From NCBI GenBank assembly GCA_050953525.1, contig JBMNMW010000004.1:1539-65538 (forward strand): a stretch of DNA of 64,000 bases, written 5' to 3'. Shown one piece after another: positions 20,204 to 50,129 of the stretch. The translations under genes were made by a program, and so were the position numbers. The notes beneath the pieces were generated by a model. The model had not been told where the DNA came from and did no database searches. It worked only from the letters and a program-made list of their open reading frames with translations. The stretch is from Candidatus Brevefilum sp. (GTDB lineage Bacteria; Chloroflexota; Anaerolineae; Anaerolineales; Anaerolineaceae). Every line of letters begins with the position of its first letter. The first letter of the stretch is position 1.

Positions 20204-20206
20204 TAT

Positions 20207-21817: not shown

Positions 21818-21820
21818 TTT

Positions 21821-23098: not shown

Positions 23099-23197
23099 GA
23101 AAAATAACCTTTGATTAGTAAAGAGATTGGTTAATTTCCATCATCTTTTACTTTCGATGGGTGCAAAAAACTCAAAACCGAATCGCCTCCAATATGG

Positions 23198-24475: not shown

Positions 24476-25893
24476 CAGAATTCAGCGTACATAAAGGCGG
24501 TGAAACCTTTGGAGACAATAAAGGTCAGGGTGAAAATGAACAATGCGATATAAGCAACATCTAATATGACCAGTGAAATCCCCCCCTTTTTCTTTGCTTT
24601 TTCCGCAAGGTTGTGCATCAGGGGCAGGCTGAACAATACTGCTGGGATGATGAAAGGTATGTAAAAAAGGATATTGAGGGATCTAAAAGTGACAGAATTG
24701 CTCCAGCCATTCATGCCAAACAAAGCGCCTAAGAAGGGTCCCCAGGAGCGGATGTCGGTAATCCTGAAGAACACCCAACCGATGATGATTAATACCAAAG
24801 AATAGATATGCTGGATGATCGGGTTGATTTTCTTTAACTTTTTCCCAAAGCCGGAGGCTTCAATTGCAAGGATAAAGCCATAATATGCCCCCCAAATCAC
24901 ATAGTTCCAGCTAGTGCCATGCCAGAGTCCCGTTAAAAGGAAAACGATCAGGAGGTTGGATTGCTGCCGAAGAAACCTCTCTTTCTTTCGAGCAAATTCA
25001 AGAGGAATGAACAGATAGGTGCGAAACCATGCCCCCAACGTGATATGCCAACGGCGCCAAAAATCCGAGATACTCCGACTGATGTAGGGAAAATTGAAAT
25101 TTTCAGGCAGATTGAACCCTAGCATTTGACCAACACCAATCGCCATATCGGTATAGCCTGAGAAATCCAAATAAAGCTGCAAGGTGTAGGCGATAATGCC
25201 AAACCAGGCTACACCGGCACCCATTTCACGATAATTTGCAGAAAAAACCTGGCTTGTCGCCAAATGCAAGCTGTCCGCTAAGATAACTTTTTTTGCCAGA
25301 CCCCCAATAAACCTTCTGGCGCCTTGCATAATATCCAGAGGGATGAATTTTCTGGTGATTAAGTCGTCCTTGACCTGGGTAAACCGGGTGATTGGACCTT
25401 GCAGTAACTTGGGAAACATGATCAGATAAGCGCTAAAATTGATCAGGTTGTTCTCAGCATCGTTGACCTGATTATAAATATCGAGAATGTAGGAGATGCC
25501 GGAAAAAGTGAAGAAAGAAATACCTAACGGGAGTGCAGGTTCCGAATAATTGATTGAGATAGAAAAAATAGCTTCGATGATATCAAAGAAAAAGCCTGTA
25601 TATTTATAAAACCCTAAAAGTAATAAATTCAGGATCACCCCGGTCCACATGAGCGATTTTGCTGATTTTTCTTCCTTTGTGCTGTAAACCTTTCCTATTT
25701 TTCGACCGATAAAGTAATTCAGAAGGATCGAAAGAAGCAATACATGGATGTGAGTAGGGTCTGACCAGGCAAAAAATGCAAAAGATAAAATGACGAGCAA
25801 GGCGTTTTGCCAGGCTCTTTTTGGAAGGACATAAAAAAGTATCAGGGTAATTGGAAGGAATAAAAATATGAAGGTGATGCTTGAAAATGGCAT
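24475..25893 (-). CDS. MBOAT O-acyltransferase, AlgI/DltB family
   Basis: LPLGISFFTF, FPKLLQGPI.R, YLDFSGYTDMA, ENFNFPY, FWRRWHITL, catalytic His in TGLWHG, C-terminal FMYAEF. Confidence 0.93.
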   Translation of the reverse strand: MPFSSITFIFLFLPITLILFYVLPKRAWQNALLVILSFAFFAWSDPTHIHVLLLSILLNYFIGRKIGKVYSTKEEKSAKSLMWTGVILNLLLLGFYKYTGFFFDIIEAIFSISINYSEPALPLGISFFTFSGISYILDIYNQVNDAENNLINFSAYLIMFPKLLQGPITRFTQVKDDLITRKFIPLDIMQGARRFIGGLAKKVILADSLHLATSQVFSANYREMGAGVAWFGIIAYTLQLYLDFSGYTDMAIGVGQMLGFNLPENFNFPYISRSISDFWRRWHITLGAWFRTYLFIPLEFARKKERFLRQQSNLLIVFLLTGLWHGTSWNYVIWGAYYGFILAIEASGFGKKLKKINPIIQHIYSLVLIIIGWVFFRITDIRSWGPFLGALFGMNGWSNSVTFRSLNILFYIPFIIPAVLFSLPLMHNLAEKAKKKGGISLVILDVAYIALFIFTLTFIVSKGFTAFMYAEF

Positions 25894-26037
25894 TTATCCT
25901 CTTTCTGAACAAAAATCCCTTTTCTGGTTTACAGCAAGTTGATATTATACCCAAAACGACGCGAATTGGTCACTTCGCCTGGTTTTGCGCTTCCAGAACT
26001 TCTTTTATTTAAAGGATTTAATTCGATTGAAGAGTAA

Positions 26038-28044
26038 TTAATATCCCAACCAGTTCAGAGCACTTTTGACGTAATTTCTCCACACACTTGGATAGTGGGT
26101 GCCATACCAGTTGTCGACAAATTTGACGTTCGCACCCTTGGTCTGCATTGGTTTACGGATCGCGTTGGCGCCACTCTGATAAGCCAGGGGCATTGTCAAT
26201 TGTGTACCATCACGCAAAAGCACAAAGGGATAAGGAGATCCTGGCCCCGAATCTTCCTGCCTTCCGATATAAAGATAAAATTTAACATTTTTTGGAATGG
26301 TAGAGCTGGTAAAGGATCCAATGTATTTCACGAATTGATTGGTTTCCAGCCAGTAAGGTAGATATGGAGGCAAAATTCCGCCGCCTTCTGCCAGCCAAAC
26401 GGCTGGTGACATTGCCATTATCTTCGAAAAAACATCCGGTCGTTTGAGCCCTGCATAAAGCGAAAACAAAGCAACTCGACTTCCACCTCCGATGCCGGTA
26501 TGTTCTCGACCAGGCAGGGTGCGGTAGTTGGAATCAATGATAGGCTTCAGATCATCAATAATGAAGCTCAATAGTTGGTTTCCTTTTCCATTTACGACGT
26601 CGGTTGTGTTGTTGAGCCAATTATCCATATTATAGTTGGTCCAGGGCATATACTCATCGTAGGGATGAAAGGAATCAAATTCAATTGCGACTGCTATAAT
26701 TCCCTTACCAGTTGTCTCGTAAATCGTATTGAGAGTTTCATCAAATTTCCAATCAAGAAGGTCTGAAATGTTGGCACCAGCTTCTGCACCGAAAACATGC
26801 TGTGCATCAAGAAGGTAAATAACCGGATAGGATTGCGTTGTTCTAAAGTAATCCGGCGGCAAATAGACCCAAATCCGTCTTGCCCTGTTGTGGAATGGAA
26901 TTGTAATATCAAAATGATCCAAACCCTTATTAAAAAATATTGGGAAGTAAGTTTCATAATCCAAGGACCGGGTCAATAAAGGCTGTGGCAGGTTCTGCGC
27001 CCAGGCGTCAAGGTTGAAATTCCCGTTATTAATAGCCTTTTCTGGTAAACCATTTGCTAACAATGCTTCTACCAATGCTCGGATGCCCTCAAGGTAGGCT
27101 TGCGGAAATGATATCTTGTTCCCACGACTATCATTGACGACAGGTCGGACATCTACTTCCATTGTTCGTCGCGCATCATCCACCTCAATCGCAAAGGACA
27201 CACCCTCGGGCAGACTCCGCTCATTGATCAGGTTAAGCAAATGATTATTGGACAGCCAGGTGCCTCCCCTTTCGGCAAACCAGATTGTGGGTGATAGCGC
27301 ACCGACCTTTGAATAGACATCAGGCCTCATCAAGCCGGCGTAAAGAGAGAAAAGCCCCCCCATCTCATAGCCGCCAATAGTCGTGTTTTCTCGACTCTGT
27401 AAGGTCCGATAGCGTTGATCGATCTCCGGCTTGAGTGTATCCACCATAAAATCAAGGTAAGCATCGGCGTCTCCGCCTGCACTGCGATTTGCCTCATAGG
27501 GATCCACCCACAGGTACATATGATTGTTCTCCCAGGGTCCGTACTCTTCCCAATGATGAATGGGGTCAGAGAACAACCCCACGATGATGGCATTTGATGC
27601 AGCTACGTCTGTAAAGAATGGGTACAGGCTCTCGTCTAAAAACCAGGACTCTCCATCAATCCTATTTTTTATGAAGAACTCTTCTGCCCCCTGAAGGTAG
27701 AAGACAGGATAAGCCTGTTGCGAGGTGAAATAATCAGGCGGAAGTAAGATGACCACAGATTTATCTCGCCCATCAAACTGGGGCATTTGGATCGAAAATA
27801 ATTCAATCTGATTGTTTTCAATCGGGTGCAGCTCATCACGCTGTGATGTGAGCATACTCAAACTGCTGCCTGTGTCAGACTCGTTTATGTATTGAAAGAG
27901 CTGATCAAACTCGGCTGATGGGTCGGCTGGATCATCCCCCGCCTGAACCGCATTTGGAACAAGCGAAAAACACAAAACAAACAATAGCAAACCAGTAAAA
28001 ATTTTTCTGAAATATTTATTTTCTTGATGAGGTATTAAACGCAT
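26038..28044 (-). CDS. Secreted tandem alpha/beta-hydrolase (two PF00756-type esterase domains)
   Basis: Signal peptide ending AVQA. Two copies of (V/W)..LPPDY.....YPV.Y...LKP.ID..YRT...RE.T.IGG....LFSLYAGL.RPDV.SK...SP. Confidence 0.8.
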   Translation of the reverse strand: MRLIPHQENKYFRKIFTGLLLFVLCFSLVPNAVQAGDDPADPSAEFDQLFQYINESDTGSSLSMLTSQRDELHPIENNQIELFSIQMPQFDGRDKSVVILLPPDYFTSQQAYPVFYLQGAEEFFIKNRIDGESWFLDESLYPFFTDVAASNAIIVGLFSDPIHHWEEYGPWENNHMYLWVDPYEANRSAGGDADAYLDFMVDTLKPEIDQRYRTLQSRENTTIGGYEMGGLFSLYAGLMRPDVYSKVGALSPTIWFAERGGTWLSNNHLLNLINERSLPEGVSFAIEVDDARRTMEVDVRPVVNDSRGNKISFPQAYLEGIRALVEALLANGLPEKAINNGNFNLDAWAQNLPQPLLTRSLDYETYFPIFFNKGLDHFDITIPFHNRARRIWVYLPPDYFRTTQSYPVIYLLDAQHVFGAEAGANISDLLDWKFDETLNTIYETTGKGIIAVAIEFDSFHPYDEYMPWTNYNMDNWLNNTTDVVNGKGNQLLSFIIDDLKPIIDSNYRTLPGREHTGIGGGSRVALFSLYAGLKRPDVFSKIMAMSPAVWLAEGGGILPPYLPYWLETNQFVKYIGSFTSSTIPKNVKFYLYIGRQEDSGPGSPYPFVLLRDGTQLTMPLAYQSGANAIRKPMQTKGANVKFVDNWYGTHYPSVWRNYVKSALNWLGY

Positions 28045-28287
28045 AAAATTCCCTCTGATTCAGGATCAGTATATTCGTTTTTTAGATCAATCATTTTACC
28101 ACAATGGGAAAGGGAAGCCCTGTTATTTAAGATTGTTTTATAAAGAATTAACACCATTGTCAGCCAGTGATCAATCGATAGCAAACATGGAAAATAAAAT
28201 TTTTAAAAATCCATGAAGAAAAGGCTTGGAAAAATGAACGCTATCTAACAAGACCGCCTTGCTTTTGTAAGGCGAATATTAATTGCA

Positions 28288-30468
28288 TTATTGGTAATAA
28301 AATATTCTCCAGTGGATAAAGACTTCCGAGTACCTTGAAAGATACATCCACAAACCCCCGCTAAAATAGATTATTATCGCCAGAATGATCGTGATCCGCC
28401 GCAAAACGAAATTGCGCAGTTTAAGAAAATAATAGACCATCAGGGTGATGAGTGCACCTATGACTGGTAAATGGTACCTTCCTGAGACCGCGTAGTGACG
28501 AAAACCATATTCCAAATCCTGTTTGTAGTTGAATACAAACATGAAGCCCATAAAACCGACCAGGATGTAAATTAACAGGTTTGCAACCGGGTCTTTGAGC
28601 TTCCAGTAGCGAACCAAACACACAAACCACCAGAACAGCAAGAGACTGTGGAGCGCAGTAGCCAAAACTGGCACAAAAGTTTTGTGTGAGAAGATCCCCC
28701 AGATTGATTGAATGTTAAATGCAATCCAAAAGTCAAAGGCATAATTGATGGGATTCTGAAGGCTGTCACGCTTGAACCATAACCCCGGCAAACTGACTTG
28801 ATTGTAAAATTCGCTTCTGTAGGAAAAGGATGGACAATTTCCAATCCCCTTTATTTGATTGCATGTGGGGGTTGGCCTTGAATAGCGGATGAGATTGACC
28901 CCGTATAGCCCTATAAAAAGCGACAATGCGATGACAAACACGATCGAGAGCAGGATATTGGTCCGATTAAAGTCGAGTTTGATCTTCCGGAAATTTGTTA
29001 AACTAAAAAATAGCCAGGCTAAAAATATGATCAGGGTCATCAACAGGAATTGTTCTTTCGCAAGAGAGCCCACGATGACCCAAAAGCCAGTCAGAGTGGA
29101 ATGACGGACGAAATCCTCTTTTTTATAGAGGGAGACCAGATGGTAGATTGTTGCTGCACCTGCCAGGTTCATCAAGTTGTCGTAGCTGATTCCACCGCTG
29201 ATGAACACAAAAGTTATGATATTGGAGAGGAGAAACGCAGCCAAAACTCCGGCATAGGGGTTGTTTGTCGCTTTTTTTGCCAGCTTGTACATATATATGA
29301 TGGTGAAAGACGAAATAAAGACGGAGGTAAAACGCCACAGGTGATCTGACCGCATTGGGCTGGATGGAAATGCAAATCTGAATATCTTGTGAACTGCACC
29401 GTAGATCCAATATGCCAGGTAGGGCTGGTCTGTGACGACATAAGACGTGCCCGATTGCTCTTCAGGTATGCCCCAGGTCTCGCTATATCTGTATGCATAA
29501 TGCCTGTGAGGAGCCTGATCGGGTTGCCCGGAGGTGTACACCATAAACAGGCTAAAGGTGATAAAGTACAGGATCGTTAAGGTTAATAAGATAATGTATA
29601 AGGGCGGCTTTGTAATTTGAATTTGTTTAAAAAACGGCAACTGAATTTTTTTGTGCAGATTCCTTTTAGGGGAGTAGGTGAAGAGGAGTTCGGTGAACCC
29701 GAATAAGAAAAGGGCGAGAAAGGCTGCAGAAAAAGCAACACTCAATACCTTAAGTCCCAAAAACCATGTTTGATCCCAGGGTGAGGTGATCCTGACGCCA
29801 GCATCAAAACCATCGGTAATATTGATTTCATTGCCAATTTGATCTTCTGCAGCCTGGTCAAATTGGATAACTGATGGAACGCCATTGACCGTTACGCCAA
29901 GCCTGCCATCGGGCACAGGCTCCCGGATAAAGATCGTCATGCCTGGAACATTCCAGTAACGCATCACCCGTCTGTAAAACGATAGGATTGTTCCGCTTTT
30001 ACATTCGCCCGAATTGATCACAATAGGATAGTGGTCTTGTTCAAACCCTTCAGGAGAAAATAAATGATTTGTCATCGAATGACTCAGCTGGGGGACGACA
30101 AGTGGGGTTTCTCCGTCATCAGCGTCGAAACAGATCTCAACTTGATGGGTTGTGGGAACAGACCAAAAGTAATTGGAGCTGACAGTGATGGCCACGACTA
30201 AAAAAGCACTTAAAAGAAGAACAAAAACAAGATTCCGGGTCTTTTTAAGCTTTTTCCAAAAGGGAAGGATAATTGATTTCAGCGCAAATAAGGCCAAAAT
30301 GAAAAGAACAACACATGAAATGGAAAAAGCAAGGAGCTTTGCTTCCCGATCTTGTTGATAGAAGGATGGGAAATTTAATAAAGCAACCGCAGACAGCCCC
30401 ATGGCAAACAATAAGGATGCTAAAGCCGATAGAAAATTATTTAAAAACTTGGATTTGTTGGTGCTCAT
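28288..30468 (-). CDS. GT-C (PMT_2/DUF2142-like) membrane glycosyltransferase, type A, fused to an N-terminal extracytoplasmic domain
   Basis: SGQPDQAPH after a TM helix, GGISYDNL, SLAKEQ, SGRYHLP. The N-terminal ~260 aa is homologous to ORF 33607..34452. Confidence 0.7.
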   Translation of the reverse strand: MSTNKSKFLNNFLSALASLLFAMGLSAVALLNFPSFYQQDREAKLLAFSISCVVLFILALFALKSIILPFWKKLKKTRNLVFVLLLSAFLVVAITVSSNYFWSVPTTHQVEICFDADDGETPLVVPQLSHSMTNHLFSPEGFEQDHYPIVINSGECKSGTILSFYRRVMRYWNVPGMTIFIREPVPDGRLGVTVNGVPSVIQFDQAAEDQIGNEINITDGFDAGVRITSPWDQTWFLGLKVLSVAFSAAFLALFLFGFTELLFTYSPKRNLHKKIQLPFFKQIQITKPPLYIILLTLTILYFITFSLFMVYTSGQPDQAPHRHYAYRYSETWGIPEEQSGTSYVVTDQPYLAYWIYGAVHKIFRFAFPSSPMRSDHLWRFTSVFISSFTIIYMYKLAKKATNNPYAGVLAAFLLSNIITFVFISGGISYDNLMNLAGAATIYHLVSLYKKEDFVRHSTLTGFWVIVGSLAKEQFLLMTLIIFLAWLFFSLTNFRKIKLDFNRTNILLSIVFVIALSLFIGLYGVNLIRYSRPTPTCNQIKGIGNCPSFSYRSEFYNQVSLPGLWFKRDSLQNPINYAFDFWIAFNIQSIWGIFSHKTFVPVLATALHSLLLFWWFVCLVRYWKLKDPVANLLIYILVGFMGFMFVFNYKQDLEYGFRHYAVSGRYHLPVIGALITLMVYYFLKLRNFVLRRITIILAIIIYFSGGLWMYLSRYSEVFIHWRIFYYQ

Positions 30469-30672
30469 GAATGAATCTCCATGAAAAAAGAAAAAAAGAA
30501 CAGTGCAAAAACCTGAATTTTATACAAGTTTCTTGCTTAATTGCTGAATGTGTTGGTGGTTATTGTAATGGGTATCAATTTGGTTGTAAAGCAAACAGGA
30601 GGGGTATTATTTTTCGGCAGGCGTCAATAATATTAAATATTGAAGGTGATGAAAGTCAGGAATTTGTGTATC

Positions 30673-32070
30673 TCAATAAAACCAGTCAATCAGAAATGAG
30701 TTGTATTCGCGCAAAATTGTGATCGGACCACCATATAAAAATAACCCGATAGTGAATGCCAGGGTTGCCCAGCGTAGACTTCGAAAGGGGACATGCTCGA
30801 GGACTTTCGTAAACAAAATGTAGATCGCTCCAATCACCGGAAAAATATAACGCCCTTGCAGCATAATTTGTTTGAACCCATAGATTAACTCAGTGTTGTA
30901 GTTTTGAATAAACAGAACAACAGAATAAAAAATGGTGATCCACACTAGGGTCAGCGTGATATGCGAAAGCCTTTGATAATACATCAGGTTGAAAATGCTC
31001 AACAGAGCCATCCAGTAAAACAATAATCGTAAAAAGAGAATGATATCGCGAGGAAAATAGGCTTCATGGCTGATCATGCCAAAGGTCCGCATGAGCATAT
31101 GTTCTACCCAATCGACTGATAAATATCGCAGGAGAGATGGATAACCTTCGGCGACACTTTCTTTGATGGTCAATTTTTTCTCTAAACCCACTTCACGCAG
31201 ACGTCGTTCAAAACCACTCAATTCACACTGAGATTCTAACAATATTTCTTCACAGGGAGGTAAGATCGATTTGAATCGAAGGATGTTAATCCCGTAAATT
31301 GCGAAGTTGCCGATGATCAGCACAGCTAAAAACAGGATCAGAAGGGCTGTTTTTAGCCCTTTCAATGGGGCAGGGAATATGATTTTTCTATTTCTGACCA
31401 TGTAAGCAATCCAGGCAATACCCATCGCCAGAGCTAAGGGCAGCAATGTGTACTTTGTCAATGTGCCGATCGCGACAAATATCATCCATTTCAAACTGTC
31501 TTTAACAAATTGATCACCTTTGAGCGATTTTACTAAATAAAACAGGCTGATCATGCTGAGCATATTTGCCAGATTATCATAATTAACGCCCCCGGCAAGA
31601 AAAACAAACATCAAGGTGTGGGTTAGAAGGAAGACAGGCAAGAGCTGCCACCATTTATGCTGGATGACCTGTTTTGAGAGCAAAAAACAAAAGACGACCG
31701 TTGTGAATGCATACAGGACATTAACAACCCGCAATGTGATTAAAAGCTGGAGATCGGTTATGTTCGGTTTGATCCACTCCAGCAGGTTGATGATTCGAGC
31801 ATTGATCCAGTAGTAAAGAAATGGATTTTGTTTGATATACCAGCCCCAGACGTAAGTTTCTGCGGTGTCTGGTGGGATGCCTGCTGTCGTCGAGAAATGT
31901 TTTGAAAAAATAAAATGCGCCGATTCATCCGGAATGATCCCCGTCAGGGTCGACCGTAATCTCAAAGCAATGAAAAGGGATGAGACGATAAAAATGAGTA
32001 AAACTGCCGCGAGGACGATCTTTGTGTCATACGCCCGCCACAGATTTTGAAATGGACTTGTGTTTTTCAT
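30673..32070 (-). CDS. GT-C (PMT_2/DUF2142-like) membrane glycosyltransferase, type B
   Basis: GIIPDESAH, GGVNYDNLAN, TLTKYT, QGRYIFP; many hydrophobic segments. Confidence 0.72.
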   Translation of the reverse strand: MKNTSPFQNLWRAYDTKIVLAAVLLIFIVSSLFIALRLRSTLTGIIPDESAHFIFSKHFSTTAGIPPDTAETYVWGWYIKQNPFLYYWINARIINLLEWIKPNITDLQLLITLRVVNVLYAFTTVVFCFLLSKQVIQHKWWQLLPVFLLTHTLMFVFLAGGVNYDNLANMLSMISLFYLVKSLKGDQFVKDSLKWMIFVAIGTLTKYTLLPLALAMGIAWIAYMVRNRKIIFPAPLKGLKTALLILFLAVLIIGNFAIYGINILRFKSILPPCEEILLESQCELSGFERRLREVGLEKKLTIKESVAEGYPSLLRYLSVDWVEHMLMRTFGMISHEAYFPRDIILFLRLLFYWMALLSIFNLMYYQRLSHITLTLVWITIFYSVVLFIQNYNTELIYGFKQIMLQGRYIFPVIGAIYILFTKVLEHVPFRSLRWATLAFTIGLFLYGGPITILREYNSFLIDWFY

Positions 32071-32270
32071 AGACTTATTTCCTAATGATTTCGATTCTCA
32101 GAGAGGTGACAAAACCATTCTGATCAATGAGATCGTAAAAAACCCGACCTTCTGACAATTCGTTTTGATCCCTCTTCAATCAACTCTTTTATCTTCTTTG
32201 TGCTCAGAAAAATAATCAGATCCCCACTTTCGTGCTATGAAAATGATTCGGTGTTGTCCGGTTTTGAGGG

Positions 32271-33617
32271 TTAATTAAAGTATAAACGCCAGTGTGAAAA
32301 AACATTAGCATACCTTGAGATAAACATTCCCAGCCCACCCATGAAATAGATTAAGATGGCAATTGCGACCGTGAACCGCTTTGCCAGGGCTGACCGAATC
32401 TTCATAAAAGCATAAGACATGAAAACAGCAAGAATGCTGAGAATGGGGGATAGATATCGACCTGTGACAACGTAATGTTGAAAATTAAATTCAACTTCGT
32501 TCTTGTAATTCCAAAAGAAAACGAACCCCACATAACTGATCAAAATCATTAACAGGAGTGTTGCTATCCTGTCGCGAGGTTTCCAATGAAGGAAGAAATT
32601 AAAAATTGCCCAAATCAATAAGGTGAGGTGCAAGCTAATGGAAAGTGTTGGGACAAACGTCTGATGTGACAAAATTCCCCAGACCGACTCAGCCATTTTG
32701 TAGATCCAAAATTTCATTGCATATTTTATGGGGTCAGTGAGATGGTCGCGCACAAACCACATCCATTGGAGGTTGAAAGGTTGGTAGTGTTCGTATCGGT
32801 AATCATACGTTCTGCATGATGCGATCGCTTTAATCTGCGAGCAAGAAGCTGTTATTCGACCATAACGTACCAGGTTGACGCCATAGAGCCCAAGAAAGAG
32901 TCCTAAAAAGACAACAAAAAGAACACTCAAAACGACATTTGCCTTGCAGAATTTAAATGAAAGTGATTTGAAGTTGCGGAGGGTAAAGAATAACCAAGCA
33001 AGAAATATGATGAGTGTTAACAGTAGAAATTGATCTTTTGCAAGCGAACCAATGATCACCCAGAAGCCAACAAGTGCAGTATGACGAACATAATCATCTT
33101 TTTTATAGACCATGACAAGGTGATAAATACTGGCAATGGCTGCCAGGTTCATTAAATTGTCATAACTGATGCCTCCGCTTACAAAGACAAACATCAGGGT
33201 GTTTGAGAGGAAAAACGCAGCAAGGATTCCATAATAAGGATTGCCAGTAACCTTTTTTCCCAGTTGATAGGTGAAAAATACGGTTAATGTTGCATAGAAA
33301 AGAGATATCAGCCGCCATAATAAACCCGGTACGATATTGACGGACGGCAGAAGAAAACGGAGGATCTTATAAACTGCGCCATTGATCCAGTAATACAGGT
33401 AGGGTTGTCCCTTGATCAAATACTGGATATTGGGGTCGTCTTCAGGAATACGCCAGGTTTCGGAAAATTTGCGAGAAAAATAAGCGTGCGGTCCCTGATC
33501 GGGCTGACCGGATGTGTGAACCATCAGCAGTCCAAAAGCAATAAAATAGAGCAGCGTGAACGCTAATAGGACTTTGTAGCCCGTTAATTGAGACAGGTGC
33601 GACTCTTTAATTTTCAT
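32271..33617 (-). CDS. GT-C membrane glycosyltransferase, type A (stand-alone)
   Basis: SGQPDQGPH, GGISYDNLMN, SLAKDQ, TGRYLSP. Probable ATG at 33617 overlaps the upstream stop (ATGAAAATTAA). Confidence 0.7.
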   Translation of the reverse strand: MKIKESHLSQLTGYKVLLAFTLLYFIAFGLLMVHTSGQPDQGPHAYFSRKFSETWRIPEDDPNIQYLIKGQPYLYYWINGAVYKILRFLLPSVNIVPGLLWRLISLFYATLTVFFTYQLGKKVTGNPYYGILAAFFLSNTLMFVFVSGGISYDNLMNLAAIASIYHLVMVYKKDDYVRHTALVGFWVIIGSLAKDQFLLLTLIIFLAWLFFTLRNFKSLSFKFCKANVVLSVLFVVFLGLFLGLYGVNLVRYGRITASCSQIKAIASCRTYDYRYEHYQPFNLQWMWFVRDHLTDPIKYAMKFWIYKMAESVWGILSHQTFVPTLSISLHLTLLIWAIFNFFLHWKPRDRIATLLLMILISYVGFVFFWNYKNEVEFNFQHYVVTGRYLSPILSILAVFMSYAFMKIRSALAKRFTVAIAILIYFMGGLGMFISRYANVFSHWRLYFN

Positions 33618-34452
33618 TTCCGGCTCTTTCATGCGAATGGGGGTTGTTTTCAACAGGAAATGTAAAGAAGGTTTCAGTTAACCCAAAAAGGAACAGGGAA
33701 ATAAAGAGCGCGCTGATCAGAACAATCAGAAGTTTTAAACCCTGAAACCAGCGCTGACCCCAGGGCATGCCCACCCTTTTGCCCTGATCAAAGCCGTCCT
33801 TCACTACAATTGGGTCCGGCGTTTGCTCATCTGATTCGCGATCAAAAACAACCACTGCAGGAGCTTCATTAATTGAAATAAAGAACCTGCCATCGGGCGG
33901 GTTGTTTTGAACCGTGACATCCACCTGATTGCCGATCAGCGCAAGGGTGAGGCGCGAGAGAAGGTTGGTCAATTCGCCCTCAATACATTCACCCGACCCA
34001 ATGCTTATTGGATAGCGATCGAAACCAAAACTGTTCGGTGAATACAACCTGTTCGTGTTTGGGTCAACCAGTTTTTCTATTGCCAGGCTGCCACGCTCAT
34101 TGGAAGCATCAAAACAAAGTTTGACCTGGTGTAGCTGCGGCACCCCCCAGTAATTGGCTGAAGATAGGGTCAGCACACCGGTCAGGAGGAGAAATAGCAT
34201 GATCATAAATATCAGGCTGGATTTTCTTGTTACTTGTTTGATATGGGGCAGGATAAAAAAGATGGATGCCAACATAATCAGGGCACAATAGAAGACCCCA
34301 AGAATAATGATGCTGATGATTTTCTTTCCGGCTGTTTGTTCGTAAAAACCAACCAATCTGAAAAGTGTGAGCGCGCTCAGACTGGCGGCTATCATTCCTG
34401 CAACCAGGGTGATAAGTATGATATTTCGCGTTTTATCCTTAATTTTCACCAA
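33607..34452 (-). CDS. Membrane protein of unknown function (3 N-terminal TM, extracytoplasmic domain, C-terminal TM); partner of type-A GT-C
   Basis: Homologous to the N-terminus of 28288..30468 (HQV.(I/L)CFDA, SGEC, PDGR, I...DGFD.G, PW.Q.WF.GLK). TTG start with GGAG RBS. Confidence 0.8.
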   Translation of the reverse strand: MVKIKDKTRNIILITLVAGMIAASLSALTLFRLVGFYEQTAGKKIISIIILGVFYCALIMLASIFFILPHIKQVTRKSSLIFMIMLFLLLTGVLTLSSANYWGVPQLHQVKLCFDASNERGSLAIEKLVDPNTNRLYSPNSFGFDRYPISIGSGECIEGELTNLLSRLTLALIGNQVDVTVQNNPPDGRFFISINEAPAVVVFDRESDEQTPDPIVVKDGFDQGKRVGMPWGQRWFQGLKLLIVLISALFISLFLFGLTETFFTFPVENNPHSHERAGNEN

Positions 34453-34455
34453 AAC

Positions 34456-36366
34456 TTATTCTCCGTGCGGTTTGATATCTGGCGTAAGATTTACAAGCAT
34501 TTTGCCGACCTCGGTGAAAAACAGGTTTGGATTGAAAACGGGATCTCTGTCAACCCAATCACACCAGCGCTCAATGAAAATTTGTTTGTCGGATTGAAAA
34601 GCAGGATTTGATTTTTCCAGGTGATCAATTCGATTGGTCTTGCCCGGGATATAAAGCTCGATCGATGGGATAAGGATGTTTCGATACTCCCCATTTCGAA
34701 GTTTTAAACAAAAATCTGCGCCACAAAATATCGGGAGTTGAAAAGCCTCCTCAAATCCTCCAAAGTCATCAAAATACGACTTTCTGAACAACAAACATTT
34801 CTCTGAAATTGCAGAATAGCCCCGCACAAGTTTTGACCAACCGAAATAACCGTTCAAATCCTGCTCTTCACCCTGAGAGAGGTGCTGAAAAATCTTATCA
34901 GGGACGAGGATGATCCCATTGCTGTAAACCCTGCGGCTCTGATTGATCAAACGCGGTGCCACAGCGCCAATTCCTTTCTGGGTGGCCTGTGACATAAGCG
35001 CTTTTAACCAATCAGGTTGATACCCGGTCAGCGTTCCATCGAGAAGGCAAACAAAATCCGAGGTGGTTGCATGGATCGTTTGATTGACTCTGGATGCATA
35101 AGTGCTGTCGTCAGCAAAGGTTACAATCCTCGCTCTGGGACTTAATTCCGCTAATTCCTCTGAAAATTCATGAGCACTGTTTTCAGGGCAACCAAGAACG
35201 ACATCAAAATCCGGGTATTCTGTCGTTTCAATGATACTTTTGATATTTTTAAGGATAGGGTTAGAAAGGGTTTCGACAGGTATCACGATGGAAACACTGG
35301 GCGGAGGGTCAGCGAGGGTGTAGGATACACCATAGGCGGCTACTTCTGGCAGAAAGGTGACCTCTGCCTGGATGTTTTGGCGTGCAAGGTGATCCGTCAA
35401 AGCTCGTTGTGCAGATGTGACCGCGTAGGGCTTAACATTGAGGTCGCTCGCCGCGCTTGATTTGATGATGCGCCAGTGATACAGCGGTCTGGGAATGTGT
35501 TGAATTTGATCAGGGGTTGATTGGTCCAAAACTCTCAGCGCCAGATCGTAATCCTGTGAACCCTCAAGCCCAACCCTGAAGCCGCCAATCTTGCGCAGGA
35601 TCTCCGTGCGATAGACCCCTAGGTGAGAGATCATATTCTGGCTGAGAAAAAGCTCATAATTGAAGTCGGGTTTGAAATAGGGATCAAGCCGACGACCTTT
35701 GGCTGTGAGTTTGTCCTCATCGGAATAGATGAGGTTGCATTTTGGATGCTCCAAAATGCATTGAGCAACGTAAAAAAGCGCCAGGGGGTGCAGCAGATCA
35801 TCATGATCAAGGAGGGCGACAAAGTCGCTGCTTACCAATTCAAGGGCAGAATTACTGGCAGCTGAAATGTGACCGTTTTCTTCTCTCAGCACGATCTTTA
35901 TGCGCTGATCTTGCTGTGCAAATTCCCTGAGCAGGTCCAAAACACGGGGGTCCGTAGATGCATCATCTGCGATGCAAAGTTCCCAAAAAGGATAGATCTG
36001 GCTGATAACCGATTGAATGGCTTGATCAAGAAGTTCGAGCGGCGGATTGTAAACGGGCATAAGCACAGAAATTACAGGGTGGTGGTCCATGCTTTGGATT
36101 TGATGTTTCATCTTCTTGATGGTCTCTTCGGTCAGGGTATCATTTCGGCGGACCCATTCCTGATAGTAGATATTGAGTAGATGAAGTCGCTTCAGGAAAA
36201 TCCGCAGAAAACCGTAGGTGACATCATAAGCCTTGCTGCCTTTTGGAATAATGGCGAAATATAGTTTCCGTAAATTGGTATAAATGTTGATAGGATGAAA
36301 GAACTTGTTCATATCTATTTTGATTTTCATCGGTGTTTCACCATCAAAAGGTTCTGATGATGGCAC
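34456..36366 (-). CDS. Two-domain GT2 glycosyltransferase; C-terminal domain degenerate
   Basis: ISVLMPVYNP, CIADDAST, NGHISAASN, ALLDHDD, YSDEDK, FKPDFN, GSQDYDL, LYHWR. Confidence 0.9.
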   Translation of the reverse strand: MPSSEPFDGETPMKIKIDMNKFFHPINIYTNLRKLYFAIIPKGSKAYDVTYGFLRIFLKRLHLLNIYYQEWVRRNDTLTEETIKKMKHQIQSMDHHPVISVLMPVYNPPLELLDQAIQSVISQIYPFWELCIADDASTDPRVLDLLREFAQQDQRIKIVLREENGHISAASNSALELVSSDFVALLDHDDLLHPLALFYVAQCILEHPKCNLIYSDEDKLTAKGRRLDPYFKPDFNYELFLSQNMISHLGVYRTEILRKIGGFRVGLEGSQDYDLALRVLDQSTPDQIQHIPRPLYHWRIIKSSAASDLNVKPYAVTSAQRALTDHLARQNIQAEVTFLPEVAAYGVSYTLADPPPSVSIVIPVETLSNPILKNIKSIIETTEYPDFDVVLGCPENSAHEFSEELAELSPRARIVTFADDSTYASRVNQTIHATTSDFVCLLDGTLTGYQPDWLKALMSQATQKGIGAVAPRLINQSRRVYSNGIILVPDKIFQHLSQGEEQDLNGYFGWSKLVRGYSAISEKCLLFRKSYFDDFGGFEEAFQLPIFCGADFCLKLRNGEYRNILIPSIELYIPGKTNRIDHLEKSNPAFQSDKQIFIERWCDWVDRDPVFNPNLFFTEVGKMLVNLTPDIKPHGE

Positions 36367-36396
36367 AACGTTTGATGATTTACGTATTGGTGTGGA

Positions 36397-37797
36397 TTAA
36401 TAAAACCACGTTTGAAAAATCTCCTGATATTTCATAATGAGGATGATCGGCCCTCCGTAAAAAAGCAAACCGATCAAGGCGACCAGCGTCAGGTATTTGA
36501 CAGGTTTGAAGGGGGTGTTTTTAATGACCAGTGTCAACAATACGAAATTTGCTCCGATCACAGGGAAAAAATACCTTCCCTGGAGAGCAACCTGCTTAAA
36601 ACCATAAACAAGTTCAGATTCGTAGTTTTCAAGAAAAAGGACAAGACTGTAAAAAGCAGCAATCGCGAGCAGGTAAATAACAGGCGCGGACACAGATCGT
36701 TGGAAAAGGAGGTTCAGAACACCTAAAAAGAACAACCCGTAGAACAGGATCTGATAAAAACTGATCAACTGGAAAGGAAAATAAGCCTGATGTCCGCTGA
36801 TCCCAAAGGTTCGAAGTAGCGTGTGATAGCCCCAATCGACGAGAATGTAACGCAAAGGCGTGGGATAACCCTGGGCGATGCTCTCTCGGACGGTAAGTTT
36901 TTCGTCGAGCGCCAGCTTCCAGTGTCTCTCTTCGAATTTACTGATCTCACATTGTGATGCAAGTAATATTTGTCTGCATTTTGGTTTGATAGATTGGTAA
37001 CGGATCAGGTTGACGCCATAAAGTGCAAAATTTCCAACCAACAACAGGGATAGAACGATGATGAGGACGACCGCTTTCGCATTATTGAGGTGGATTGGAA
37101 AAAGATCTTTTCGATGAAGCGCAAGGTAGACGATCCAGCAAATCGCCATGATCAGGGCTAAGGGAAGCAGGGTGTATTTCACAAGGGTACCAAGCGCGAT
37201 GAGGATCATCCAGCCAAGGCTATTGAATAAAAAATTCTTCCCCTGGACCACGTTGATGAAGCAGTAAATCCCAGCCATGCTCAACAGATTAGCGAGGCTG
37301 TCATAATGAACGCCTGGCGCCATAAAGACGAACATGAGCGTGTTGGTCAATATAAAAACGGGTAAGAGCTGCCACCATTGGTGTTGAATGACCGCCTTGG
37401 ATAACAAAAAACAAAAATAAACCGTTCCAATGGCGTACAGGAGGCTGACAAAGCGTAATAAAACCAATAGATTGTGATCTGTTAAATTTGGGGCAATCAG
37501 GTTGAATAAATTGATAATTCTGCCTGTAACCCAGTAATAGAGGAAGGGATGTTGTTCAATATACCATCCCCAGGCAATGGTTTCGTCTGTGTCGGGGGGG
37601 ATCCCTGGAGTTGTGGAAAAATGTTTGGCAAACACAAAATGGGCGGGTTCGTCCGGGATGATGCCCGGCTTCAGGTTGATTGCGAGAAAGGCGCTGTAAC
37701 CAACAAAGACAAGGATTAGCACCAGCAACACCAGGTTTGCACCATTTGTTTGCCAAAATGATTTCGTTTTTTGATTATTTGCGAGGTTTGATATCAT
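36397..37797 (-). CDS. GT-C membrane glycosyltransferase, type B
   Basis: GIIPDEPAH, GVHYDSLAN, TLVKYT, QGRYFFP; clear paralog of 30673..32070. Confidence 0.72.
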   Translation of the reverse strand: MISNLANNQKTKSFWQTNGANLVLLVLILVFVGYSAFLAINLKPGIIPDEPAHFVFAKHFSTTPGIPPDTDETIAWGWYIEQHPFLYYWVTGRIINLFNLIAPNLTDHNLLVLLRFVSLLYAIGTVYFCFLLSKAVIQHQWWQLLPVFILTNTLMFVFMAPGVHYDSLANLLSMAGIYCFINVVQGKNFLFNSLGWMILIALGTLVKYTLLPLALIMAICWIVYLALHRKDLFPIHLNNAKAVVLIIVLSLLLVGNFALYGVNLIRYQSIKPKCRQILLASQCEISKFEERHWKLALDEKLTVRESIAQGYPTPLRYILVDWGYHTLLRTFGISGHQAYFPFQLISFYQILFYGLFFLGVLNLLFQRSVSAPVIYLLAIAAFYSLVLFLENYESELVYGFKQVALQGRYFFPVIGANFVLLTLVIKNTPFKPVKYLTLVALIGLLFYGGPIILIMKYQEIFQTWFY

Positions 37798-37973
37798 TCG
37801 TCGAATAAATTCTAATTCAGTGTCTATTATTAAAATTGATTATAGCTCAATACCGGATTGACCGTTTGTGGTTCGCCTTGTTGTGGCACATCAAGGGTGC
37901 TGCCCCGGCTTGGTGATTTTTCGTTTGCTCACCGCAGATTTCTGATACGGGTAGGCGATTAAAGCCCAATTGT

Positions 37974-40010
37974 TCAGACATCTCGCCAGGGTTGGATGAC
38001 GCGAGGCGGGAAGGCAAGAGAAAAATTGGGGATGGTCAGGGACAGGTTGAGATTGTACGTGGGATCATCGGCAATATACGCCGGCCATGTGTTGATGAGA
38101 TAATCTGCCTCCTCCTTCACCCGTGCAATTTTTTCGGGGGTGTCCTCATAAGCACGTGACATGGATTCGTGATGATAAAGCTCTGCGTGCGGCGTCCACA
38201 GATTGCGGTATCCCGCTTCCATCAAGCGAATGCAGAGATCGATATCATTGTAGGCTACCGGTAAATCATGTTCGTTAAAACCTTTGATTTTTAGAAATTT
38301 TTCTTTTTGAATAGCCATGCACGCACCGGTTACTGCTGAATAATTTTGCGCCAGACGCACACGCCCCCGTTGCCCGAGCGTACCTCGTGGGCTTCCATAA
38401 TAAATATGTCCTGCAATCCCCCGCATGCCCAGAATAACACCGGCGTGCTGGATGGTGTCGTTGGGGTAATACAGCATTGCACCCACAGCGCCAATTTCCG
38501 GTCTGAGGGCGTGCCCGATCAGTTCGTCCAACCAATCTGGAGAGATCACCTCGGTATCGTTGTTCAAAAGCACGAAGACTTCTCCACCCGCTTCACTTGC
38601 CGCAAAATTGTTGATGGCGGAGTAATTGAAGGGCAGGTCATAAGGGATGATTTTTATATTTTCGACTTTTCGAATCTCCGAAAAATAGGCAAGAGTCTCT
38701 TCATCATCCGATTGGTTATCGACCACAATCATTTCGTAATGTGAGTAGCGACTTAACTTCTGGATGCTGTCGATGCATCTTTTTAGGAGGGGCGCCTGAT
38801 TTCTGGTAGGGATGACGATGCTCACCAGGGGCTTGGGATCGGGAATGAGATGTCTGATCTTCCAGAACTCTCCATCGATTTCCGTAATGTCTATACGACG
38901 ATCTGTTCGATTAAAATGCTCCTGCAACACCATAAATTGCGCTTTTTTCGCATAGCCCTTGTAAGCCAGGGATAGGGCGGTTGATCCAATCACGGCGCGC
39001 CAGTGGTAAAGGATAAAGGGAATGTGGCGGATTGCCGAAGGGGGGATATGCTCACTGATCCGCATGGCAAGGTCCCAATCCTGTGCGCCTTCGTAACCCT
39101 CCCTAAACCCTCCGGCCTGGACGACTTTGTCACGTCGATAGACTCCAAAATGGGTGATCAGGTTGTGCCCGTAAAACAAATCAGGATTCCAGGCGGGTTT
39201 GAAGTAAGGGTCATAACGCACGCCGAATTCATCAATCAGGTCTTCGTCGCTGTAGATGATGATTGCATCTGGATGTTGATTGATTTCATGGGCCACCATG
39301 TACAGTGCATGCTCTCTGAGGATATCATCATGATCGAGCAAACCAACGTATTCACCGGCTGCCATGCTGAGCGCCGTGTTGGAGGCTGCTGAGATGTGTC
39401 CGTTTGTTTCTCGAAACGCAACCTTGAATCGACTATCTTTTTCGATAAATTCGTGTAGTATTGCGCGAATGTGAGGCTCGGTGGAAGCGTCATCGGCAAT
39501 ACAGCATTCCCAATTGGGGTAATTTTGCGCCAGAACTGACTCGAGCGCTTCCCGCAGAAATTGCTCTGGCGTGTTGTAAACAGGCATGATGATTGAGATC
39601 AGCGGCGTGTGTGCAAAGGTCTCCATATGGGAGCGCATCAAGATGCGATCCTCCGCGATAAGCGTATCGTATTGCTCAATCCAGCTGTAGTAGGTGAAAG
39701 GATCTGTGGATTGCGAACGGTTGGCTGGGCGGTCCTCTGCCATCCCAAACTGGATATAGTGCAGCAGGGGATTGATCCTGCTCAATCGGATGTCCTTATT
39801 CTCACGGAGGTAATAGGCTGTGTCAAAAACGGGGGAGGGATTTTTCCCCTCATGCCAACCGTGTTTTATGTAGTGCATGATAGGAGGAAGCTTTTGCTGC
39901 TTAATTTCAGGATAGGTTTGGAGATAATATGACTCGTCAAACAACCCGCTTTTTTTAATGCGGTAATATTCTTTTAAGGTTTTTATCTGACTGAACAAAT
40001 TGCGTTTCAT
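37974..40010 (-). CDS. Two-domain GT2 glycosyltransferase with N-terminal FD..YY...YP../HY...G..EG..P repeat module
   Basis: GLLDHDD in domain 1, VLLNNDT in domain 2, PFNYSAINN, AVTGAC, YNDIDLC, LYHHES. Confidence 0.9.
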   Translation of the reverse strand: MKRNLFSQIKTLKEYYRIKKSGLFDESYYLQTYPEIKQQKLPPIMHYIKHGWHEGKNPSPVFDTAYYLRENKDIRLSRINPLLHYIQFGMAEDRPANRSQSTDPFTYYSWIEQYDTLIAEDRILMRSHMETFAHTPLISIIMPVYNTPEQFLREALESVLAQNYPNWECCIADDASTEPHIRAILHEFIEKDSRFKVAFRETNGHISAASNTALSMAAGEYVGLLDHDDILREHALYMVAHEINQHPDAIIIYSDEDLIDEFGVRYDPYFKPAWNPDLFYGHNLITHFGVYRRDKVVQAGGFREGYEGAQDWDLAMRISEHIPPSAIRHIPFILYHWRAVIGSTALSLAYKGYAKKAQFMVLQEHFNRTDRRIDITEIDGEFWKIRHLIPDPKPLVSIVIPTRNQAPLLKRCIDSIQKLSRYSHYEMIVVDNQSDDEETLAYFSEIRKVENIKIIPYDLPFNYSAINNFAASEAGGEVFVLLNNDTEVISPDWLDELIGHALRPEIGAVGAMLYYPNDTIQHAGVILGMRGIAGHIYYGSPRGTLGQRGRVRLAQNYSAVTGACMAIQKEKFLKIKGFNEHDLPVAYNDIDLCIRLMEAGYRNLWTPHAELYHHESMSRAYEDTPEKIARVKEEADYLINTWPAYIADDPTYNLNLSLTIPNFSLAFPPRVIQPWRDV

Positions 40011-40277
40011 AGATCGTGTATTTGCATCAAAGACGGTAACATATAAAAATTGAAAAAACAGATCATTTGATTTATTATATCTGAAAGATGAAAAGGAAAG
40101 AGTAGTTCGATCAATTGCCGATGACCGAAAAATTGTTGATCTGTGGGATGGAGAAAAAACAGTATATTACAGAAACTACTTTCCGGGAAATCTAAGTCTC
40201 TGTTTGACTTTTTTGACTGATTTGAGTTTTTACGATGCAAAACATATTAATCAATAATAGCAAGGAATACATATCCA

Positions 40278-41291
40278 ATGAAGGCAACGATTTATCTTCA
40301 TATCGGTCCGCATAAAACGGGCACTACGACGATCCAGAAAGGATTGTTGCTCAATGAGGACACCTTGAGGAACAAAGGCGTTTTAGTCCCCAGGGCTGGT
40401 CGTTCGATGACCGAAACGGCTGGTCATCATAACCTTGCCTGGGAGCTTCTGGGCAATTCAAGATTTAATCCTGCCTATGGTACATGGGAGGGGCTGGTTA
40501 GGGAGATTGATAAAAATAGCGGGATCCAAAAAGTGATCCTTTCAGCGGAAGGTTTTTGTTTGTTAGGTGATCAAGAAATCGGCAGAATTAAGGAAGCATT
40601 AAAGGAATTTCCTGTTCAAATTGTGATGTATTTACGTGACCAAGATGAAGCGCTGCAATCTTCCTGGGTATCGCAGGTTCGGAATGCTTTTGTGATGCCC
40701 CCTGTCGGCTCGTTTCGCGAATGGCTGAAAGGAAATAATTACAAATCAAAGAATACAGATTATTTTGCCATGATCAAGCGTTGGGAAAACATATTTTCAA
40801 AAGAGGCTTTGATTTTATCGGGTTTCTCGCAAAGATTTACGGGAGATAACTTATTTGAACATTTTCTTTTGCAGTGCGGGGTCAGCTGGAATCAGATGAC
40901 AGTACCTGAAAATTTGAATTTATCGCCGGGAGCGAAAACGATTGAAGCGATGCGGTTGCTAAAAAATTCAATCAGATTTTCCGAAATGGACAGCCAATCT
41001 TGGGGTTTGATAGCGAAAAGTATCATGTCCTACGGGGATCAAATGGGTTGGAATCAGTGCAAATTGAATTACCTTGATCGCAAACTATCAAGGAAAATCA
41101 TGAAGCACCACCAACAATCAAACGCGGAGATAGAAAGAGAGTATTTTCAGAACCAGGTTGTATTTGAGAGTAAAAGGCGAGAGCAAGCGCGGGTTGATAA
41201 ATTCACCTATGATCAGTTTTCAAAACAGGAAACCGTGGACTTACTCTCCTTCATCCTTTATCAATTTGAGCAGGCGTACAGAAATCAGTAA
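40278..41291 (+). CDS. Sulfotransferase-like P-loop protein (HIGxHKTGTT family)
   Basis: YLHIGPHKTGTTTIQ, ILSAE, IVMYLR.Q. Function is inferred at family level only. Confidence 0.6.
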   Translation: MKATIYLHIGPHKTGTTTIQKGLLLNEDTLRNKGVLVPRAGRSMTETAGHHNLAWELLGNSRFNPAYGTWEGLVREIDKNSGIQKVILSAEGFCLLGDQEIGRIKEALKEFPVQIVMYLRDQDEALQSSWVSQVRNAFVMPPVGSFREWLKGNNYKSKNTDYFAMIKRWENIFSKEALILSGFSQRFTGDNLFEHFLLQCGVSWNQMTVPENLNLSPGAKTIEAMRLLKNSIRFSEMDSQSWGLIAKSIMSYGDQMGWNQCKLNYLDRKLSRKIMKHHQQSNAEIEREYFQNQVVFESKRREQARVDKFTYDQFSKQETVDLLSFILYQFEQAYRNQ

Positions 41292-41319
41292 AGAAAAAGA
41301 TAAAAAGTTGGAAAAAGCA

Positions 41320-50114: not shown

Positions 50115-50129
50115 AATTGAGAAAGAAGT

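Follow-up and report, generated by a model that had tools for sequence, protein, structure and literature searches.

What do four related membrane proteins do that are encoded side by side in two alternating subtypes, and do these subtypes depend on each other? This question is raised by a 64,000-nucleotide stretch of the genome of a Candidatus Brevefilum sp. (GenBank assembly GCA_050953525.1, contig JBMNMW010000004.1, positions 1,539 to 65,538 of the forward strand), which is called the window here and to which all coordinates refer. It carries an array of four GT-C-type proteins in the order B-A-B-A, together with a GT2 glycosyltransferase gene and an accessory gene. Our analysis favours, with a probability of about 55%, independent outward-facing transferases that use lipid-phosphate-sugar donors and decorate an exported wall glycopolymer. 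An earlier note, made from the sequence alone, had described the array, and the open reading frames (ORFs) were found where it had placed them. All six ORFs of the array lie on the minus strand, and are given here in transcription order from GT2a, which adjoins B1 and is a further member of a conserved block, to acc-A2:

37974-40010, minus strand: GT2a, a cytoplasmic protein of 678 amino acids encoded directly upstream of B1 (Pfam Glycos_transf_2 at residues 139-293, Glyco_tranf_2_3 at 394-615)
36397-37797, minus strand: B1, a type-B GT-C-fold protein of 466 amino acids with the motif GIIPDEPAH
34456-36366, minus strand: GT2b, a cytoplasmic protein of 636 amino acids with two GT2 domains (Pfam)
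33607-34449, minus strand: acc1, a stand-alone accessory subunit of 280 amino acids
32271-33632, minus strand: A1, a type-A GT-C-fold protein of 453 amino acids with the motif SGQPDQGPH
30673-32070, minus strand: B2, the second type-B GT-C protein, 465 amino acids, with the motif GIIPDESAH
28288-30468, minus strand: acc-A2, 726 amino acids, in which an accessory module (about 29644-30468) is fused to a type-A core (about 28288-29643)

Judged from structure models, the four proteins have the GT-C fold. The AlphaFold2 models of B1 and acc-A2, both built on the family alignment, reached mean predicted local distance difference test (pLDDT) scores of 95.1 and 89.2 and predicted TM-scores (pTM) of 0.93 and 0.89, respectively. 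When the B1 model was compared to the PDB with Foldseek, the best 24 matches were all GT-C enzymes (probability 1.0; query-normalised TM-score 0.42-0.50), including AglB, ArnT, STT3, PglB, EmbA/B, Pmt4, ALG9/12, AftB and Pmt1/2, and the first match outside the GT-C enzymes had a probability of at most 0.41. The acc-A2 model gave the same picture, with EmbB, PglB, STT3, ArnT and Pmt4 among its matches. The structure search that the earlier note had proposed against PMT (the protein O-mannosyltransferase family), ArnT, AglB and Emb therefore bears out its GT-C assignment. From the B1 helix map and the sequence, about 11 transmembrane helices are predicted, with the N-terminus inside and the C-terminus outside, and the invariant residues would lie at the outer face beside a conserved Cys pair. 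Eukaryotic PMTs carry a luminal MIR (beta-trefoil) domain between their seventh and eighth transmembrane helices; the corresponding loop of B1 (268-341) comprises 74 residues, is mostly helical in the model and contains no such domain.

Sequence searches were far less informative. Pfam and NCBIfam scans of the four GT-C proteins and acc1 gave nothing significant, and PDB sequence searches with profiles of 4, 94 and 14 sequences returned no meaningful match. Scanning 94 family members singly yielded weak Pfam matches to PMT (30 members), PMT_2 (10), DUF2142 (7) and GT22 (3). The 30 matches to PMT (PF02366) were obtained at E≤0.01, the best being 2.4e-7, and none of the four window proteins matched this model at E≤1 or reached its curated threshold. 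Nearly all 246 homologues of B1 are unnamed; at NCBI some type-A orthologues, including the Brevefilum cluster, are called 'glycosyltransferase family 39 protein' and the type-B ones 'hypothetical'. We conclude that the proteins form a distinct, uncurated GT-C family (GT-C_A-like) that is remotely related to PMT and ArnT. It is found mainly in Anaerolineae, with distant relatives in Patescibacteria. These distant members (30-38% identity, with the motif PDS..YH) are widespread in Patescibacteria of like habitats (L039-L067 and others; Saccharibacteria, Dojkabacteria), and a few relatives occur in metagenome-assembled genomes of Deltaproteobacteria. The family may have been transferred between Anaerolineae and bacteria of the candidate phyla radiation.

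Within the window, B1 and B2 are 53% identical and type A and type B share 27-29% identity. B1 and A1 were aligned by BLASTP with an E-value of 1e-46 over 454 residues, so by sequence the paralogy of the four proteins is far beyond chance. The two subtypes are real, and type A is monophyletic with 100% bootstrap support. The motifs quoted in the earlier note (SGQPDQxPH, GIIPDExAH, YD(N/S)L and GRY..P) were all recovered; in the window they read TSGQPDQ(G/A)PH in type A and GIIPDE(P/S)AH in type B, with YD(N/S)L and GRY..P besides. The Cys pair, written there as C..I....C, is also present, but its spacing is C-x2-I-x5-C, with 8 residues between the cysteines rather than the implied 7.

Conservation was computed across the 94 A, B and distant family members and is given in B1 numbering. 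Invariant are P48, D49, H53, R115, M155, Y165, D166, N263, Y317, G332, G407, R408, Y409, P412 and W464, and C274 and C283 are nearly so. D49 belongs to the PD(E/Q/S)xxH motif and directly follows helix 2-41 of the B1 model, which agrees with the acidic motif after the first transmembrane helix that the earlier note had named for GT-C folds. The corresponding Asp is held to be the key catalytic residue in ArnT and PMT (PMC8698208). The second residue of the motif varies across the family (E, Q or S): the loop-1 pair is Asp-Glu (PDE) in type B, Asp-Gln in type A and Asp-Ser in the relatives from Patescibacteria, which carry PDS..YH. Types A and B have 51 near-invariant positions in common and 12 fixed differences, including E50Q. 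Given this variation at the second motif residue, the 'DQ' of type A is no evidence of inactivity. The suggestion that the Asp-Gln type may be non-catalytic is thus unlikely, and type A is probably catalytic as judged from its residues; a different specificity for type A, the other option raised, is plausible.

If A and B acted only as a pair, they should be found together, and the earlier note had proposed to check whether they always co-occur. We compared 77 genomic and 68 metagenomic loci, in which every ORF was classed by hidden Markov models of A, B and the accessory module (acc). The distribution of the two subtypes is largely independent. A B-like gene without A was found in about 77 related loci, including loci of the same clade with B followed by GT2b (L001 and L008), and A without B was found in two loci (L071/L147 and L097/L146). 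In L147, which equals L071, the gene order is rmlCBAD-Wzm-Wzt-GT2-accA and A is the sole family member; in L146, which equals L097, A is present and B is absent from its flanks. Copy numbers vary as well. Two A genes accompany one B gene in L082, L084 and L086, where acc, A and accA occur without B2, and in L088 (B, GT2, accA, accA). One A gene accompanies two B genes in L090 (B, B, ..., acc, A). The full B-A-B-A layout was found in the window and in L081 only, and probably also in L080 and L078.

Neighbour-joining trees with 200 bootstraps gave a similar picture. The A2 clade is supported by 100%, and a position of A2 within the A1 group of the window by 4%. The B2 clade is small (93.5%) and was found only in the window, L081, L080 and L078; B2 is thus a lineage-restricted extra copy. 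Its position among the B1 groups is unsettled in the neighbour-joining tree, so the test for a duplication of the pair is only partly decisive. In the simplest history A was duplicated first, with fusion of acc, and B was duplicated later. The data fit such stepwise duplication better than a less likely course in which a pair was duplicated and B2 was then lost repeatedly. Given the independent occurrence and the variable copy numbers, it is unlikely that A and B form an obligate heterodimer or that an A/B pair was duplicated in a single event. The ancient tandem duplication of a pair working as heterodimers that had been proposed therefore does not fit A2 standing outside the A1 group, B2 being confined to four loci and the unpaired copies.

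GT2b is the gene found most constantly next to both B and acc-A. The conserved core block reads GT2a-B-GT2b-acc-A-esterase-MBOAT-DHHW-DHHW-ligase, and this synteny is kept in about 20 loci, with the order GT2a-B-GT2b also conserved in related loci. GT2b lies directly upstream of acc in 16 of the 33 A-containing loci, most of the others being cut at this point. In L001 and L008, which are B-only, it comes after B, and in L071 it comes before accA.

Every locus examined with an A-type gene also contains the accessory module, either split or fused, and type A is defined by this orphan module of four transmembrane helices and a beta-sandwich. acc1 is 38% identical to the N-terminus of A2 (E 2e-58). 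In the acc-A2 model, the module consists of transmembrane helices at 7-31, 41-74 and 77-101, a beta-sandwich at 104-217 and a further transmembrane helix at 234-264, and a Lys/Arg-rich linker joins it to the GT-C core. The predicted architecture of acc1 (three helices, an extracytoplasmic beta-sandwich and one helix) is taken from this fused paralogue. Conserved in the module are the Cys pair C112/C155, from which a disulfide bond in the beta-sandwich is predicted, and the motifs PPDGR, GFDQG and GLTE. Searching 1.84 billion representative proteins with an accessory profile retrieved 38 relatives only, all of which are stand-alone proteins of about 270-280 amino acids, A fusions of about 700-727 amino acids, or fragments. 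No remote relatives or other fusion partners were found among these representatives, and no sequence relative was found in the PDB by profile search. Type-A homologues correspondingly come as forms of about 450 amino acids or, when fused, about 727. This pattern of split and fused forms argues that acc binds the type-A core physically, and the whole-chain pTM of 0.89 of the fusion suggests a fixed packing of the module against the core. The outward beta-sandwich is a reasonable candidate for holding the acceptor, by analogy to the carbohydrate-binding modules (CBMs) of Emb enzymes and GT136 (PMC11127046).

In the window the split between acc1 and A1 is genuine. The earlier note had listed the accessory domain and type A as one item (33607/32271); both are present, but as two separate overlapping genes. 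B1 and GT2b are 30 nt apart, GT2b and acc1 6 nt, and acc1 overlaps A1, its stop codon overlapping the ATG of A1 (AATGAAAATTAA). The A1 ORF extends to 33653; on other contigs the gene call begins at 33632, which gives the 453 amino acids listed above. On several contigs (P0237, P0121) acc1 and A1 are likewise called as distinct genes. The overlap sits within an A-rich run (33600-33640, GAAAATTAAAG), in which the loss of one A would join acc1 and A1 in frame, as in the error-prone contig P0215. This single-A difference shows that split and fused forms could easily interconvert. The acc-A1 fusion of P0215 itself, a 98%-identical contig with one A of difference in the A-run, was dropped as evidence for a frameshift or fusion because the contig is indel-ridden, with frame breaks at both start and end.

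DNA repeats in 28000-38000 merely reflect the paralogy. A promoter and terminator scan of 25800-41400 gave fewer promoter-like sites than shuffled controls, and a hairpin 3′ of A2 (28254-28275) was its sole notable feature. Low-depth contigs from runs labelled RNA-Seq cover the array, and a run that is truly transcriptomic adds two short ones. This weak metatranscriptome evidence is compatible with expression, and DNA could be included.

The array lies in a large wall-glycopolymer super-locus of an uncultured Anaerolineae bacterium that recurs in bioreactor and anaerobic-digester metagenomes and whose relatives are the Anaerolineae Brevefilum, Mesolinea and Longilinea. In a cultured species, Longilinea arvoryzae KOME-1 (L011), a B-like gene adjoins rml and Wzm/Wzt genes. 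Upstream of the array are genes annotated for dTDP-rhamnose supply and polymer export, and downstream is a Dlt-like acylation module (19967-28044, minus strand; Pfam and NCBIfam) that appears from its gene content to be a complete pathway:

44041-49239, minus strand: rmlD, rmlA, rmlB and rmlC with a Wzt/Wzm ABC exporter (Pfam), the Wzt matching TagH and galactan-export Wzt
26038-28044, minus strand: secreted protein with two PF00756 esterase domains
24475-25893, minus strand: MBOAT protein, DltB-like (E 4e-49)
21821-24475, minus strand: two DHHW proteins
20207-21817, minus strand: AMP-binding ligase, with acetate-CoA ligases as best NCBIfam matches
19967-20203, minus strand: carrier protein of 78 amino acids with a DSL motif

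Of the 33 A loci, 13-14 have esterase, MBOAT and DHHW genes after the A-type gene, compared to 0-1 of the 77 B-only loci. The interleaving of the GT-C genes with dual GT2 genes, the TagF- and Dlt-like neighbours of a distant B-like gene and the association of A with the acylation module together support a polymer as acceptor. Further downstream, beyond the acylation module, lie a Wzx-like flippase gene, GT2 and GT4 genes and a WbpABDEI-like operon, among which candidates for donor synthesis and flipping were found:

8175-9125, plus strand: GtrB/DPM1-like GT2 of 316 amino acids with two C-terminal transmembrane helices, the candidate donor synthase
4061-10255, plus strand: WbpD/E/B/A/I-like operon, into which the GT2 of 8175-9125 is inserted mid-operon
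14633-16114, minus strand: Wzx-like protein (Pfam Polysacc_synt_3, E 6e-92)

The product of 8175-9125 has NCBIfam matches to AglJ, PpgS, dolichyl-phosphate hexose transferase and ArnC. The surrounding operon encodes a hexapeptide acetyltransferase, a DegT aminotransferase, a GFO oxidoreductase, a UDP-sugar dehydrogenase and a 2-epimerase; WbpABDEI-type gene sets are typical of UDP-2,3-diacetamido-uronic acid synthesis. This arrangement hints at an unusual polyprenyl-phosphate-linked sugar as the extracytoplasmic donor. By its family, the Wzx-like protein is a possible flippase for the lipid-linked donor, and the only candidate for this role. The GT2 of 13689-14648 was ruled out as donor synthase, as it has no C-terminal transmembrane helices. 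In relatives, a GtrB-like gene lies within 10 kb of a B-like gene in 13 of 35 well-flanked B-only loci and directly adjacent to it in L001, L028, L030 and L098. The GtrB-like synthase in the window and near the B-like genes of relatives is indirect evidence for the proposed donor type at the outer face of the membrane, as are the conserved Cys pairs in the outer loops.

Two unannotated genes, 40278-41291 (plus strand) and 41320-42720 (minus strand), encode a P-loop-like HxGxxKTGT(T/S) motif and are possibly sulfotransferase-like; one of them shares repeated 'YYLxxYP(D/E)...HY/F..GW.EGRNPS' motifs with the N-terminus of GT2a. The equivalent cluster in L147 encodes several Pfam sulfotransferases, which suggests that the polymer may be sulfated or otherwise capped. 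In the more distant L148-L150, the context of P0216, dual-domain GT2 genes enclose a B-like GT-C gene on both sides, which matches the arrangement in the window; the vicinity also holds genes for a TagF-like glycerophosphotransferase and a cytidylyltransferase, and a 79-amino-acid ORF with an AMP-binding ligase gene, which by annotation gives this locus a teichoic-acid-like flavour. Just beyond Wzm, on the same strand, 50185-51054 (minus) encodes a protein 289 amino acids long that has an N-terminal signal or transmembrane segment, a PT-rich repeat stretch (..PTNTPTS..) about 90 residues long, a beta-rich domain and a transmembrane anchor at the C-terminus, and the adjoining 49302-50135 (minus) encodes a lipoprotein-like protein of 277 amino acids. 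Neither product had a Pfam match.

In the mechanism that we propose, a sugar would be linked to polyprenyl phosphate by the GtrB/DPM1-like GT2 and flipped across the membrane, and the GT-C protein would then move it from this donor to the ABC-exported wall glycopolymer. Each paralogue would be an inverting glycosyltransferase with an outward catalytic site, formed by the motif Asp in the first outer loop, R115, the YD loop, N263 and GRYxxP. Type B would be the common form that needs no partner, and type A a derived one working in every case together with the accessory module, either as the translationally coupled acc1 and A1 or as the A2 fusion, with the module probably holding the acceptor. 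The separate duplications of A and B would have led to paralogues of differing donor or acceptor specificity.

Several points weigh against this proposal. The family lacks a curated profile and none of its members is characterised, and the topology and the clustering of the invariant residues were read from model secondary structure and sequence. The nearest GtrB-like gene is 19 kb from the array in another operon, with none adjacent, and Pfam scans of the window gave no family match for a GtrA-type flippase. The CBM-like role of the beta-sandwich is a guess, as the module has no detectable relative, and the dual GT2 proteins could be the real functional partners in some other way. In addition, PMT is the nearest Pfam relative by count, and acceptors of protein nature are suggested by a sister clade, whose B-like genes are flanked by genes for a GtrB-like GT2 and for a CAP-LysM protein rich in Thr and Pro.

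The latter points lead to what we regard as the main rival, namely that the proteins are protein O-glycosyltransferases, functional analogues of PMT that act on Thr/Pro-rich linkers of envelope proteins with either a polyprenyl-phosphate-monosaccharide or, as in S-layer glycosylation, an ABC-exported lipid-linked rhamnan as donor. PMT is the commonest of the weak Pfam matches (30/94). It is also resembled in the DE motif of loop 1 and in the deduced topology, with 11 transmembrane helices, the N-terminus inside and the C-terminus outside (PMC12705809, PMC8698208). A gene for a CAP protein with three LysM domains and Thr/Pro-rich linkers lies convergently within 200 nt of the B-like gene in 18 B-only loci, followed in at least seven of these by a GtrB-like GT2 gene, and the window has its own Thr/Pro-rich anchored protein (50185-51054). 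On the other hand, the constant neighbours in the clade of the window are polymer-building and polymer-modifying genes rather than genes for Thr/Pro-rich proteins. Moreover, the LysM gene is convergent and its linkage may merely reflect common descent in one clade, a MIR-like domain is lacking and no window protein reaches the Pfam threshold for PMT. We therefore consider protein O-glycosylation unlikely. The candidate protein acceptor, by its sequence features, would be the CAP-LysM protein, represented by L015 11403-12887 (minus strand, about 494 amino acids, C-terminal transmembrane anchor); it has orthologues in 20 other loci, including L004, L017-L020, L037, L113 and L118. That A and B form a heterodimer like Pmt1-Pmt2 or EmbA-EmbB in genomes having both, so that the array would represent two pairs, seems rather unlikely to us, even though five of six species representatives with A have a B gene upstream within the block, as do all metagenome loci with A whose upstream sequence is long enough, save L097, B1-GT2b-acc-A1 are tightly packed, and dimeric GT-C enzymes (Pmt1-Pmt2, the Pmt4 homodimer, EmbA-EmbB; PMC12705809) are among the structural matches. 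The independent occurrence of A and B described above, which extends to loci of the same synteny, and their unequal ratios speak against such a dimer, as does the differing distribution of the A2 and B2 clades.

Two further readings are less likely than protein O-glycosylation. The paralogues could be extracytoplasmic polymerases, branching enzymes or en-bloc transferases that build a whole glycan domain on an exported primer instead of attaching single side-chain sugars, like the arabinan made on galactan by Emb and Aft enzymes. EmbB, EmbA, AftA and AftB are among the structural matches, Wzt resembles a galactan exporter, several paralogues in one array recall embCAB, and the CBMs of Emb offer a parallel to the accessory beta-sandwich (PMC11127046). 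This is very unlikely: by sequence the proteins are not related to Emb or Aft, the predicted topology has 11 transmembrane helices instead of 15, and no dedicated pentofuranose-donor pathway (DPPR synthase, DprE-like) was seen in the Pfam scans of the window. Finally, as all A-type proteins have Gln in place of the Glu of the DE motif, one could argue that type A is a non-catalytic pseudoenzyme serving only as scaffold or regulator. We consider this highly improbable, as type A keeps the Asp and all family-invariant residues and is strongly conserved (mean column identity 65%), Ser stands at the second motif position in the Patescibacteria relatives, and A is the sole family member in L147. 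A more far-reaching version of the proposed decoration by type A is that it is a 'split' GT-C whose catalytic subunit is inactive without the orphan subunit, and that together with B and the dual GT2 proteins it forms a trans-membrane machine coupling cytoplasmic synthesis to decoration outside, possibly with A-B heterodimers. This view is quite doubtful; if true, it would mean a new GT-C family with acceptor recognition supplied in trans.

Several known systems can be compared to the array. The mycobacterial EmbC/EmbA/EmbB and Aft enzymes, of which EmbA and EmbB form a heterodimer, are likewise tandem GT-C paralogues that act on an ABC-exported polymer and carry extra beta domains. They differ in having 15 transmembrane helices and C-terminal CBMs in the same chain, whereas the beta-sandwich of the window proteins belongs to an N-terminal module of four transmembrane helices or to its own gene. 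The likeness is at fold level only: the window proteins have about 11 transmembrane helices, and no genes for decaprenyl-phosphate-arabinose were found in the Pfam scans of the window. PMT (CAZy GT39, PF02366) shares the GT-C fold, about 11 transmembrane helices and, with type B, the D-E after the first helix. Unlike PMT, type A of the window has D-Q, a MIR domain is lacking and the context is one of polysaccharide synthesis. ArnT (GT83, Pfam PMT_2) is among the best structural matches of B1, with the lowest root-mean-square deviation of about 7.5 Å. The pairing of GT2b with a GT-C protein in the window is similar to that in rgp loci of Streptococcus thermophilus, where a DUF2142 membrane protein occurs with a 'large multidomain glycosyltransferase' (PMC9746298). 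The window proteins match neither the PMT_2 nor the DUF2142 model, and lipid A is unlikely as acceptor.

The closest working analogy is the rhamnan locus of Streptococcus mutans, in which, as in the window, several GT-C paralogues are encoded within an ABC-transporter-dependent rhamnose-polymer locus; two of them, SccM and SccQ, each add a different glucose branch (PMC11754754). Three-component systems such as SccN/SccM and SccP/SccQ, GacI/GacL of Streptococcus pyogenes and Gtr of Shigella combine a GtrB-type synthase, a flippase and a GT-C protein. In contrast to these, the GT-C proteins of the window have no detectable sequence similarity to them and no synthase paired to each, their genes are interleaved with those of two-domain GT2 proteins, and type A needs an extra membrane subunit. 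GT136 (ORF12 of Citrobacter and Klebsiella) is a GT-C protein with a CBM that binds the unmodified backbone (PMC11127046). As a GT-C with an added extracytoplasmic domain it resembles type A, and the three-component system of which it is a part modifies an O-polysaccharide that is ABC-exported. GT136 is unrelated in sequence, and its CBM, for which relatives can be recognised, is part of the GT-C chain itself, whereas the accessory module of the window is an orphan.

Bacterial surface chemistry is decided by GT-C enzymes, of which those characterised stem mostly from Proteobacteria, Firmicutes and Actinobacteria. Little is known of the envelope of Anaerolineae, filamentous organisms that abound in anaerobic digesters. 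The finding overturns no current concept. It does present a natural experiment, in which the same catalytic core occurs alone (B), with a separate subunit (acc and A1) and with a fused subunit (A2). Characterisation of the family would give CAZy a further family, tell how GT-C enzymes come to recruit modules for acceptor binding and help to define the wall glycopolymer of Chloroflexota, which, from the genes of this locus, appears to contain rhamnose and to be acylated by a Dlt-like system.

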